From Candidatus Aerophobota bacterium (GTDB lineage: Bacteria > Chlamydiota > Chlamydiia > Chlamydiales > Simkaniaceae), in assembly GCA_002401865.1 (NCBI GenBank), contig NVUK01000028.1, positions 1 through 19,961 of the forward strand: a stretch of DNA of 19,961 nucleotides. Reading direction: 5' to 3'. Below the pieces are notes generated by a model. That model saw only the letters and a program-made list of their open reading frames with translations. It was not told the DNA's origin and did no database searches. The translations under genes were made by a program, and so were the position numbers. Below are positions 3 through 1,994 of this stretch, in pieces. Each line of letters opens with the position of its first letter. Position 1 is the first letter of the stretch.

Positions 3-1466
3 CTGGGTAGAGTGAAGCGAGAGAAAAAAGAAACGGGTGCCTATTCTATAGAGTATGATGCTATGGGGCAGACTACTTACCAGGGAGACAAAGCATTTCA
101 ATGGGACCCTTGGGGTCAGCTTATTGCTGTTTCGGATGAGAATTATTTTTGGCAAGCTTTTTACGATGGGATGGGTAGACGTATTCAAACTGAGTGTAGT
201 GAAGACTCAGAGCCTGCTAGCATAACAACAACATTGTTTGATCCAGAGTTTGAGTTCCAAGAGATAGGCACTAGAGTGGGAGAAAAACTTTTTTGGAAGG
301 TAGAAGGCCCGGGTGGTTGCAATGCTATTATAGAAGGGAAAAGTGGCCAGGTTGCGAGTTTAGTTTATAGTGGATTAAATGAGCTTACGGATGTGGTGAT
401 AGGGGATACTGCTTACGTAGTTTCTCCTACAATTACAGCATATGGTCCTCAAGAAGTTTTAGAGCAGCCCTCAGATTTACTTAGTTTTGCACAGTCCCTT
501 GCTTGGCATAGCACTAGTGTAGATAGGACAGGGCTTATGTTGATGGGCAAACGTTATTATGATCCTACTTGTGGCAGGTTTTTAACGCCTGATCCACTGA
601 GTTACCCAGCTTGCGTAGATTTATATGCCTATACTCCAGGCGACCCTATTAACTATGCCGATTTAGACGGACGCTTTGCCTCCCCTATTTATAATTCAGT
701 AAAAAGTAAAGTTTTAGAAGTGTGGGATAATTCAGGTTTTCAAAGTCCTACGGAGATGGTAGGTAGTATGTTAAACCCTATGAATTCTCCTGTTATGCGT
801 AGCGGTAAAAATCTTGCTAATTCTTTTGCTTATAGCGGTCTGGGCAATTCTCACTCTTTTCAAGTAGGTGATTCTAATTTTTCAAAAAGTAGCATAGGGT
901 TCATGAACGGGGTTGGCACCACAACAGCAGGTGCAATAAAAAATGTCACTCAAGGGGTAAGTCCCTATGCTAATAATATGAATATCAACTGCACTTACAA
1001 TGCTACTAATTCACTACTAATAGATACGTTAGAGTGCGGGGCAGGACTTGCTGGTTTTAATTCCACACCTGTTGCTCTTTTACAAAAACAGTATGATCAT
1101 TTTGTAAACACACATGGTCCTGATGCAAAATTTTTGCAAATTTGCCATAGTGGAGCTACTATTCATGTTAAGAATTTTCTAAAAAACGCTCCTGAACATG
1201 TTAGGCAACGCATCATTGTTCTAGCGATTGCTCCTGCTACTATTATTCCAGAAGAATTATGTTTCCGCTCCTACAATTATGCTAGTAAAAGAGACTTTGT
1301 GCCCAAGCTTGATTTTATAGGGAATAGAAAATATGGAGATCAATTGCATATGTTAGATCCCCATCCCAGCGCAAAGACTTGGGATCACGATTGTTTAAGC
1401 CGTACTTTTGAAACTGTGATACAAGATCACATCGAAGGCCATATCAAAGATTATGGAGACCATTAG
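3..1466 (+). CDS. Rhs/YD-repeat protein, C-terminal portion (5' end lies outside the window), carrying a variable C-terminal polymorphic toxin domain of unrecognised type
   Basis: The reading frame is open from the window edge. YD-repeat-like segments are present (YDAMGQTTY, FYDGMGRRI, GKRYYDPTCGRF). The Rhs core-end signature GRFLTPDPLSYPACVDLYAYTPGDPINYADLDGRF ends at about nt 678. The roughly 260 codons that follow (679-1466) have no repeat character, as expected for a toxin tip. Confidence 0.75.
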   Translation: MGRVKREKKETGAYSIEYDAMGQTTYQGDKAFQWDPWGQLIAVSDENYFWQAFYDGMGRRIQTECSEDSEPASITTTLFDPEFEFQEIGTRVGEKLFWKVEGPGGCNAIIEGKSGQVASLVYSGLNELTDVVIGDTAYVVSPTITAYGPQEVLEQPSDLLSFAQSLAWHSTSVDRTGLMLMGKRYYDPTCGRFLTPDPLSYPACVDLYAYTPGDPINYADLDGRFASPIYNSVKSKVLEVWDNSGFQSPTEMVGSMLNPMNSPVMRSGKNLANSFAYSGLGNSHSFQVGDSNFSKSSIGFMNGVGTTTAGAIKNVTQGVSPYANNMNINCTYNATNSLLIDTLECGAGLAGFNSTPVALLQKQYDHFVNTHGPDAKFLQICHSGATIHVKNFLKNAPEHVRQRIIVLAIAPATIIPEELCFRSYNYASKRDFVPKLDFIGNRKYGDQLHMLDPHPSAKTWDHDCLSRTFETVIQDHIEGHIKDYGDH

Positions 1467-1994
1467 GTGAAATTTATTTTTAATTTACAAGTTTTTATAG
1501 TCATTCTCTTTGGAACTTTTTCATGTGGGCACCAGTCACCTCGCTATGTAAAAATAGCACATAAAATTACAGATGACACTGCCAAGAAATTAGCAAAGGA
1601 AAAGAACCTTGTCTTGATAGGCACAGGCGGTGGGATGATGCATGATATACAAATGATGGCTATGAGCTTTAATTTTTATCATGAAGTCAATCTTCAAGAA
1701 GCTAGAGAGTTAGTTGTATATGCGATTAGAGAGTATTTATCTGATATTAATTCTAATGAAAAAGTAAGACCATATCTACATAATTATCCATTTACGGCGA
1801 AAAATGTAGAGGTAAGGATTTTCCTTTATGAACCGGATAGAAATACTCTTCCCCCAGGGAAAATTCATTGTATTTCTGCGACCCATGGGAGCATTAGTTA
1901 CTATGTTCGTGGTTCAGAAAAATATTCTAGAAAAAATATTTGCGAAGAAACGTATGAGCAAGCCTTAAAGATGGTGTCCCTTGATACCAAATAA
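1467..1994 (+). CDS. Putative cognate immunity protein for the Rhs C-terminal toxin (175 aa; hydrophobic signal-peptide-like or lipoprotein-like N-terminus)
   Basis: The GTG start directly abuts the Rhs TAG stop (TAGGTG), with GGAG about 10 nt upstream. The small ORF sits immediately 3' of the toxin tip, which is the canonical Rhs-CT/immunity arrangement. The N-terminus MKFIFNLQVFIVILFGTFSCG is hydrophobic with a Cys. Confidence 0.45.
   Translation: MKFIFNLQVFIVILFGTFSCGHQSPRYVKIAHKITDDTAKKLAKEKNLVLIGTGGGMMHDIQMMAMSFNFYHEVNLQEARELVVYAIREYLSDINSNEKVRPYLHNYPFTAKNVEVRIFLYEPDRNTLPPGKIHCISATHGSISYYVRGSEKYSRKNICEETYEQALKMVSLDTK

Follow-up and report, generated by a model that had tools for sequence, protein, structure and literature searches.

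Contig NVUK01000028.1 of GenBank assembly GCA_002401865.1 begins with the truncated 3′ part of an Rhs gene, which is followed without any gap by a second open reading frame (ORF). Two questions are raised by this locus: which activity resides in the C-terminal tip of the Rhs protein, and whether the abutting gene protects the producing cell against that activity. The contig was analysed from position 1 to position 19,961, and this whole stretch of 19,961 nucleotides (nt) is called the window. We consider it probable that the gene pair encodes a Sec-exported Rhs polymorphic toxin with an esterase or lipase tip, together with a periplasmic immunity lipoprotein. In GenBank, the toxin (PCI76457.1, partial) and the downstream protein (PCI76478.1) are both recorded as hypothetical proteins of a 'Candidatus Aerophobetes' metagenome-assembled genome (MAG). 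Homologues of the tip (21 that share sequence words with it, at 36-59% identity) reach E values down to 5e-63, and those of the downstream protein (more than 200 that share 50-66% identity, with Simkania negevensis and Rhabdochlamydia as the named sources) reach 1e-68; both coding regions are thus real and not products of chance.

The Rhs gene and its hydrolase-like tip

The C-terminus of an Rhs protein is encoded by nt 3-1466 of the window, in an ORF that is open at its 5′ edge and ends with a TAG stop codon at 1464-1466. The first 225 residues of this ORF form the end of the Rhs protein proper, and residues 146-223 match the NCBIfam model TIGR03696 (Rhs_assc_core) with an E value of 1.9e-15 and a score of 57 bits, above the cut-off of 32.5. 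A preliminary description of this DNA had let the Rhs core end with a PDPL...DLDGRF signature and had counted 262 residues behind it, and both statements hold. The PDPL...GDPINYADLDGRF motif finishes at nt 677, with DLDGRF at nt 660-677, and exactly 262 residues follow (nt 678-1463). The boundary between core and tip in homologues likewise reads DPDGRF, DLDGRF or DLNGRF, and the tips diverge beyond that point. By analogy, the core-terminal motif is a predicted site of autoproteolytic release.

The RHS repeats are represented within the window by a weak match to PF05593 (E 0.018), because the contig cuts the Rhs gene. The complete gene is present on L020, an ENA scaffold of 38.9 kb that derives from the same sample and shares 99.99% identity with the window across 11,994 nt. 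The full-length protein comprises 2889 amino acids and starts with a Sec-type signal peptide (MRSYLSIKRCVLFLVVCLLPTFTFGA...), and signal peptides also start the full-length Rhs homologues of other assemblies. Approximately 1200 residues on the N-terminal side match no family. The remainder includes DUF6531 at 1265-1334, RHS/YD repeats (PF05593, E 2.9e-53; TIGR01643, E 1.7e-37) and Rhs_assc_core at 2548-2625. No PAAR or VgrG domain was detected by Pfam and NCBIfam in the full 2889 residues, where DUF6531, the RHS repeats and the Rhs core were the only domains found, and the genes called upstream of Rhs on this scaffold are methyltransferases. The window gene is an Rhs polymorphic toxin gene, and every defining feature that could be tested is present.

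The tip had been described as matching no toxin family, with a His-rich tail, and as unclassified. The first part of this description stands: searches of the window tip against Pfam, NCBIfam, PADLOC and the PDB sequences gave no match, and the best PDB sequence (proteasome alpha-4, E 1.3) is noise. The term 'unclassified' does not stand, as the tip is a predicted alpha/beta-hydrolase and a remote relative of DUF687. The AlphaFold model of the tip, which has a predicted local distance difference test score (pLDDT) of 84, contains no predicted lid domain, and its best Foldseek matches are lid-less esterases, cutinases and PETases. Carboxylesterases, dienelactone hydrolases, S-formylglutathione hydrolases, feruloyl esterases and polyester hydrolases rank among the best structural matches; a prominent place there is also taken by cutinases, lipases, monoacylglycerol lipases, acyl-protein thioesterases and lysophospholipase-like proteins.

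Taken together, the structure model and the family alignment predict an alpha/beta-hydrolase with a conserved Ser-Asp-His triad in canonical order, with the three residues located after beta5, beta7 and beta8 as placed on the secondary structure of the model. Conservation was counted over the non-gap sequences among 167 domain instances. The predicted nucleophile Ser157 is present in all 164 sequences, in an elbow between a strand (150-156) and a helix (159-169) of the model, and the predicted acid Asp205 is present in 164 of 165. The predicted catalytic His236 is invariant (163/163) and is preceded by Asp235 in 158 sequences. Asn76, in the N76-G77 loop of the predicted oxyanion hole, is found in 152 of 159. 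Besides the triad, N76, N107, D115, C155, H156 and C194 are nearly invariant. Two cysteines are included among these residues, namely C155 (nt 1143-1145; 149/164), which lies two residues ahead of Ser157, and C194 (163/164); they may serve in redox chemistry, in a disulfide or in catalysis. The His-rich tail contains the invariant His236 within its WDH motif; the other histidines of the last helix, including the final DHIEGHIKDYGDH, show no conservation, so that this tail is informative only in part. The tip ends 25 residues past the catalytic His with an amphipathic helix and has no hydrophobic segment.

A profile built from the tip homologues retrieved 2318 cluster representatives from 1.84 billion proteins, 710 of them at E<=1e-30. 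The hydrolase domain is nearly always C-terminal, either in Rhs proteins of 1400-2900 amino acids or in proteins of 250-650 amino acids, and the named sources of the family are all Chlamydiota. The Pfam family DUF687 (PF05095) is matched by 11 of the 22 aligned sequences of the tip family (best E 4e-13, approximate profile positions 35-178). One of the family members, P0157, scores 34.8 bits, above the Pfam cut-off of 25, and retains the pattern CHSGG...D...DH. Judged by its sequence, the window tip is a relative of DUF687 rather than a member, since it lacks a match to the model, has no transmembrane bundle and keeps an intact triad. Neither DUF2235 nor any other Pfam lipase family was matched at E<=1 by the window tip and 22 family members; single weak matches of family members concerned DUF3089 (0.067) and Hydrolase_4 (0.12), and a profile search of the PDB with the family alignment found no hydrolase. 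Two further candidates were rejected as spurious, the fold being clearly that of an alpha/beta-hydrolase: the lipid-binding protein 5h0q, which was hit in the PDB profile search (E 0.046) over a short stretch containing YNAT, and the Pfam family 'Nakanori', which was weakly matched by two family members.

The abutting lipoprotein gene and its linkage to the hydrolase

The downstream ORF had been presented in the preliminary description as an immunity candidate that abuts the toxin gene, carries a secretory or lipoprotein-like N-terminus and should act in the periplasm; the results below agree with this picture, and the wider claim of a new family needs rewording. The ORF starts with GTG at 1467, and the toxin and immunity genes are translationally coupled, given that GGAG lies 8 nt upstream of this abutting start codon. 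The GenBank call of PCI76478.1 is 12 codons too short, and the conserved N-terminus of the homologues supports GTG 1467. The N-terminus of the protein, MKFIFNLQVFIVILFGTFSCG, is a hydrophobic signal sequence. In 93 of 117 homologues, the signal sequence closes with a lipobox-like motif L-x-[GAS]-C, and the UniRef name of the Simkania homologue is 'Lipoprotein'. The structure model of the downstream protein has an alpha+beta fold (pLDDT 91.6), for which no convincing structural relative was found, and no Pfam family was matched among 78 members of the protein family. None of the libraries searched contains a model of it. Some immunity homologues are longer (approximately 290-300 amino acids: P0037, P0053, P0086, P0110 and L018 7001-7879) and carry an additional conserved C-terminal domain of approximately 110 residues (…VAKDGAKV…PAVIGKSGGICYIDILR…KLPWG).

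Linkage was investigated in 24 related loci from metagenomes and genomes, 19 of which could be scored; two end at a contig edge. An immunity homologue lies within a few bases of the toxin stop codon in all ten loci with an Rhs core and the hydrolase, and directly downstream in six of nine loci with a non-Rhs hydrolase (L003, L008, L011, L012, L014 and L026), thereby giving 16 linked loci out of 19. The ORF tracks the toxin domain rather than the Rhs protein, and its presence beside non-Rhs carriers of the hydrolase supports the immunity idea instead of refuting it.

Tandem arrays of the immunity gene occur as well; L009 has four copies and L007 has two. Orphan modules consisting of a toxin fragment and an immunity gene, which the preliminary description had proposed to look for in related genomes, were found in five loci (L001, L002, L004 from Simkania negevensis Z, L016, and L017 from Rhabdochlamydia sp. 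T3358). L001 contains two extra units of toxin residues ~110-259 plus immunity gene, L016 contains three orphan units, and the orphan Rhs core and tip of L002 are disrupted and lie next to an insertion sequence element. The gene of the Simkania protein SNE_A00800 (P0039) was located in L004 by tblastn. Inside the window, tblastn detected no further toxin or immunity copies and no orphan modules. Many of the orphan fragments start not in the Rhs core but within the hydrolase domain, at residues 107-137, near the motifs YNATN and KFLQICHS.

The pairwise identity of the toxin C-half (140-245) is correlated with that of the immunity protein (Spearman 0.79 over 18 pairs; 1 of 5001 permutations as high, p 2e-4), a correlation that is confounded by shared ancestry and physical linkage. 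For the same 12 pairs with complete toxins, the correlation with the immunity protein is 0.26 for the N-half and 0.65 for the C-half. These values are supportive of intra-domain recombination that moves the toxin C-half together with the immunity gene. The guanine-cytosine content, which is 0.42-0.44 in the upstream Rhs repeats and core, drops to ~0.37 for the tip and to 0.32-0.34 for the immunity gene, and increases once more in the gene behind it. Synteny between the window and the Simkania locus extends to the subsequent porin genes. Compared across loci, the sequences indicate that the toxin C-half travels with the immunity gene as one cassette.

The suggestion of a new toxin/immunity family is right in that the pair is uncharacterised. 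The pair is not unseen, as the tip family is already present, without comment, in published genomes such as that of Simkania negevensis Z. In every record examined, the proteins of both families are 'hypothetical'. The literature on environmental chlamydiae refers to their Rhs proteins solely as members of a large orthogroup or as predicted outer-membrane proteins. Both families are uncharacterised and, as far as sampled, restricted to Chlamydiota, and they occur in the textbook arrangement of Rhs-CT and immunity gene. The features of the toxin and immunity genes are collected in Table 1.

Table 1. Positions of the predicted features of the toxin and immunity genes in the window
Feature	Position (nt)	Strand	Remarks
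Rhs/YD-repeat shell, C-terminal part, and Rhs-associated core	3..677	+	Gene cut by contig end
Core-terminal motif PDPLSYPACVDLYAYTPGDPINYADLDGRF	588..677	+	Read from sequence; conserved core/variable tip boundary
Linker, tip residues 1-56	678..848	+	Poor conservation, variable alignment; AlphaFold pLDDT 38-61 over residues 1-50
Predicted alpha/beta-hydrolase toxin domain, tip residues 57-261	849..1463	+	Lid-less, cutinase/carboxylesterase-like, DUF687-related
Predicted oxyanion-hole loop G-F-M-N-G	897..911	+	Directly after strand beta3 (residues 70-75, model)
Nucleophile elbow C-H-S-G-A	1143..1157	+	Predicted catalytic Ser157 at nt 1149-1151
Predicted catalytic acid Asp205 (motif NYASKRD)	1293..1295	+	Loop after strand 196-202 (model)
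Predicted catalytic His236 (motif WDH)	1386..1388	+	Loop between strand 222-225 and last helix (model)
Ribosome-binding site GGAG	1455..1458	+	Within the 3′ end of the toxin gene; 8 nt ahead of GTG 1467
Candidate immunity lipoprotein, 175 amino acids, PCI76478.1	1467..1994	+	GTG 1467 is the next base after the toxin stop codon
Signal peptide with lipobox-like end LFGTFSC	1467..1529	+	Cys20 at nt 1524-1526; homologue alignment

Proposed mechanism and alternative explanations

The Rhs architecture, the fold, a conserved triad, signal peptides, the linkage of toxin and immunity genes and their cassette structure are directly supported, and on this basis we propose the following mechanism. The 2889-residue Rhs toxin of a Simkaniaceae-like chlamydia would be exported via Sec, and its tip would be freed when the Rhs aspartyl autoprotease cuts at DLDGRF, as expected by analogy. 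The tip may then act as an esterase, most likely a phospholipase or lysophospholipase, which would attack envelope lipids from the periplasm. The lipoprotein would bind and block the tip in the periplasm of the producer and in immune neighbours. A producer would need such a periplasmic protein because the toxin crosses its own periplasm, and protection in the periplasm agrees with the Sec signal that the full-length Rhs protein carries. The arrays and orphan modules would reflect conflict between related chlamydiae, probably sharing a host cell.

This proposal provides a concrete biochemical hypothesis, a serine esterase or lipase toxin with a lipoprotein inhibitor, for two families of 'hypothetical' proteins. 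The arrays of immunity genes and the orphan modules that Simkaniaceae and Rhabdochlamydiaceae carry add further evidence of toxin-mediated conflict between obligate intracellular bacteria. The architecture is that of a textbook Rhs system, and the advance is a new family, not a new principle.

Several observations weigh against the proposal of an esterase or lipase toxin with a periplasmic immunity lipoprotein. The window tip reaches no Pfam model at E<=1, and its nearest structures are generic small esterases at 6-17% identity, with no lipase effector of the type VI secretion system (T6SS) among them. The elbow reads CHSGA where CHSGG or CHSQG is usual, and Ala occurs at this position in only 4 of 164 sequences. 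The alpha/beta-hydrolase fold leaves the substrate chemistry unspecified. Three stand-alone hydrolases (L010, L022 and L024) have no immunity gene nearby, which means that the hydrolase domain is not always toxic to its owner. In the window copy of the lipoprotein the lipobox is non-canonical, and its lipidation is less certain because the Cys is displaced by three residues (LFGTFSC). The confounding of the identity correlation belongs here as well. No link to a T6SS was found and no delivery machinery was identified, and the obligate intracellular life of chlamydiae limits the opportunity for contact-dependent competition. A literature search covering DUF687, CT326, the Rhs proteins of Simkania and Rhabdochlamydia, and chlamydial polymorphic toxins found no functional study of either family; several apparent DUF687 hits concerned DUF6874 or DUF6875, whose names begin with the same digits.

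That intracellular life is also the starting point of one alternative, in which the Rhs tip targets the eukaryotic host, at inclusion or host membranes, and the lipoprotein only shields the producer during periplasmic passage. The named carriers are all obligate intracellular Chlamydiota, and the DUF687 relatives in Chlamydiaceae are predicted inclusion-membrane proteins (PMC3048545). Many family members of 250-650 amino acids lack a Sec signal and resemble secreted effectors, and the three stand-alone members without an immunity gene can be read in the same way. However, self-protection explains poorly the orphan modules and the arrays of up to four divergent immunity paralogues, which are a hallmark of inter-strain conflict, and Zhang et al. 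2012 (PMC3482391) argued likewise for other Simkania toxins with adjacent immunity genes. We regard a host target as unlikely, if worth keeping in mind.

The unspecified chemistry leads to a second alternative, which retains a periplasmic toxin with its immunity protein and changes the substrate: the tip could be a serine hydrolase acting on a non-lipid component of the envelope, such as a peptidoglycan or O-acetyl esterase or a peptidase. The fold is compatible with this, the top structural matches span varied esterases and hydrolases, and no lid domain is predicted. Yet cutinases, lipases and lysophospholipase-like proteins are prominent among the best matches too, and the characterised alpha/beta-hydrolase toxins of polymorphic and T6SS systems (Tle1-4; Tox-ABhydrolase-1 and -3) are phospholipases. 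A non-lipid substrate therefore seems to us improbable without being far-fetched.

The position of the lipoprotein gene might instead suggest a helper of the hydrolase, that is, a steric foldase resembling Lif, an activator or an export partner. Lipase/foldase operons show the same layout, Lif being the partner of Pseudomonas lipases. Here too, the gene is translationally coupled and directly 3′ of the hydrolase gene, its product is envelope-anchored, and the lipoproteins are fairly well conserved, with a mean pairwise identity of 54%. A helper would nevertheless not be expected as two to four tandem paralogues after a single toxin or beside truncated, inactive toxin fragments, and the downstream protein shows neither a match to the Lif family nor an all-helical fold, its own fold being non-helical; we consider this explanation very improbable. 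Finally, the view that the tip, as proposed for DUF687, has no catalytic activity and serves as a scaffold or for binding, and that the pair is no toxin-immunity system can draw on an alpha/beta-hydrolase survey in which DUF687 members are without catalytic residues (PMC11878206), but is hardly credible given that Ser, Asp and His are invariant at the canonical positions in ~164 clade members, including P0157, which passes the DUF687 cut-off.

Other carriers, neighbouring genes and known systems

Many hydrolase carriers of 450-650 amino acids are without a Sec signal and have in common an N-terminal region with a W(D/N)GR motif; they include the protein encoded at L026 671-2737, P0174, P0186, P0188, P0193 and others. 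In L026 at least, an immunity homologue abuts the stop codon of the non-Rhs carrier, a hint that this toxin may have another delivery module besides Rhs. The 344-residue hydrolase of L024 (4001-5035) lies in the order BamA, OmpH, LpxD, CorA, hydrolase, pyruvate dehydrogenase genes and has no immunity gene; this housekeeping setting points to a paralogue of the core genome whose role is physiological and not toxic. In L022, a full-length YhcG gene adjoins the stand-alone hydrolase on a contig resembling a conjugative element, beside TraG_N. A truncated YhcG-type PDDEXK nuclease is also encoded in the window at 12510-12896 (+), covering profile positions 46-157 of 157 (E 8e-41).

Two paralogous porin-like outer-membrane proteins are encoded behind the immunity gene, at 2073-3059 (+) and 4898-5965 (+); they have no Pfam match, and the syntenic Simkania genes match PF05150 (Legionella_OMP). 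A short ORF between them at 4393-4548 (+) carries a fragment of the porin N-terminus (LLTPINMKPGHPPIEPFVNF) and is an apparent duplication remnant. On the opposite strand, the tandem paralogues at 3071-3640 (-) and 3642-4181 (-), of approximately 180-190 amino acids, have a hydrophobic N-terminal region and a weak C-terminal LRR_4 match (E 0.012), and may be proteins of the inclusion-membrane (Inc) type or secreted proteins. A major facilitator superfamily transporter (8471-9703, +), an S-adenosylmethionine methyltransferase-like gene (9727-10620, -) and an aromatic amino acid lyase (10521-12152, -; PF00221, E 2.7e-159), the latter two overlapping by ~100 nt as listed, may form a small operon for a secondary metabolite or for amino-acid modification. 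Further downstream, the paralogues at 13384-14919 (+) and 17794-19377 (+) contain a PI3/PI4-kinase domain (PF00454; E 1e-9 and 1e-7) and long N-termini rich in Gly, Ala, Pro and Ser. Each is followed by one of two paralogous ORFs of 93-94 amino acids (14983-15264, + and 19439-19723, +), an arrangement that suggests a duplicated secreted lipid-kinase effector with a small partner for either copy.

The toxin and immunity homologues that carry a name or title come from Chlamydiota (Simkania, Rhabdochlamydia and Simkaniaceae MAGs), except for one MAG titled 'bacterium'. With these homologues and with an Rhs-immunity-porin order as in Simkania negevensis Z, the bin label 'Candidatus Aerophobetes' is probably wrong.

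Compared with the classical Rhs-CT/RhsI systems (Zhang et al. 2012, PMC3482391), the locus has the same YD shell, a core with a DPxG-like end, a variable tip, an abutting immunity gene, orphan modules of tip and immunity gene, and lower GC in the cassette. It differs from these systems in the Sec signal and the ~1200 uncharacterised N-terminal residues of the toxin, in the absence of a detected PAAR or VgrG domain, in its host, an obligate intracellular chlamydia, and in several orphan modules that begin in the toxin domain (107-137) and not in the core. With a Sec signal and no PAAR or VgrG domain, the window toxin is not a T6SS-type Rhs effector. Neither family is included in the polymorphic-toxin catalogue of PMC3482391.

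A functional parallel exists in the T6SS phospholipases Tle1-Tle4 with their periplasmic Tli immunity proteins and in Tox-ABhydrolase-1 and -3 of Zhang et al. 2012, which combine an alpha/beta-hydrolase bearing a serine elbow with an immunity protein bearing a signal peptide or lipobox. Periplasmic action of the window toxin is suggested on the same ground, because its immunity protein carries a signal peptide and a lipobox-like motif. Unlike these toxins, the window tip has no DUF2235 match and no Tle among its best structural matches, the elbow of its family is C-H-S-x-G and not G-x-S-x-G, and its immunity family has no relative in Pfam. Within the coverage of Pfam, the downstream protein is neither SUKH nor Imm66 nor Imm69, the families associated with Tox-ABhydrolase-2 and -3. 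The small lid-less esterases and cutinases (PDB 1auo, 4psc, 4oyl and 4fhz) resemble the tip in overall fold and in the positions of the triad.

Known relatives of the tip are the DUF687 proteins, of which CT326 and CPn0066/0069/0381/0882 of Chlamydia are predicted Inc proteins (PMC3048545). The homology extends over the hydrolase core, and both groups are restricted to Chlamydiota. In DUF687 proteins, the domain is N-terminal, is followed by transmembrane helices and is reportedly without catalytic residues (PMC3048545, PMC11878206), the loss in Chlamydiaceae being stated by PMC11878206 only; in the window protein, in contrast, it stands at the C-terminus, lacks a membrane segment and keeps the triad intact. 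A tentative scenario, possible but still on the doubtful side, would connect the two: the intact hydrolase would be the ancestral, active form of DUF687 and would have been put to at least three uses, as an Rhs warhead, as an effector-like C-terminal domain and as Inc-like DUF687, with in-domain recombination swapping only the C-half that specifies immunity. The Rhs warheads would act between chlamydiae in shared host cells, hundreds of smaller proteins would form the second group, some of them paired with immunity proteins (L026), and the Inc-like proteins of the CT326/CPn0066 family would have arisen after losing immunity and possibly catalysis. If true, this scenario would give a first functional handle on DUF687 and an example of an interbacterial toxin that became a host-directed effector in an obligate intracellular lineage. 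The comparison links DUF687 of C. trachomatis and C. pneumoniae to an active-looking hydrolase clade and offers a functional hypothesis for DUF687 as well as for a family of more than 2000 chlamydial protein clusters.

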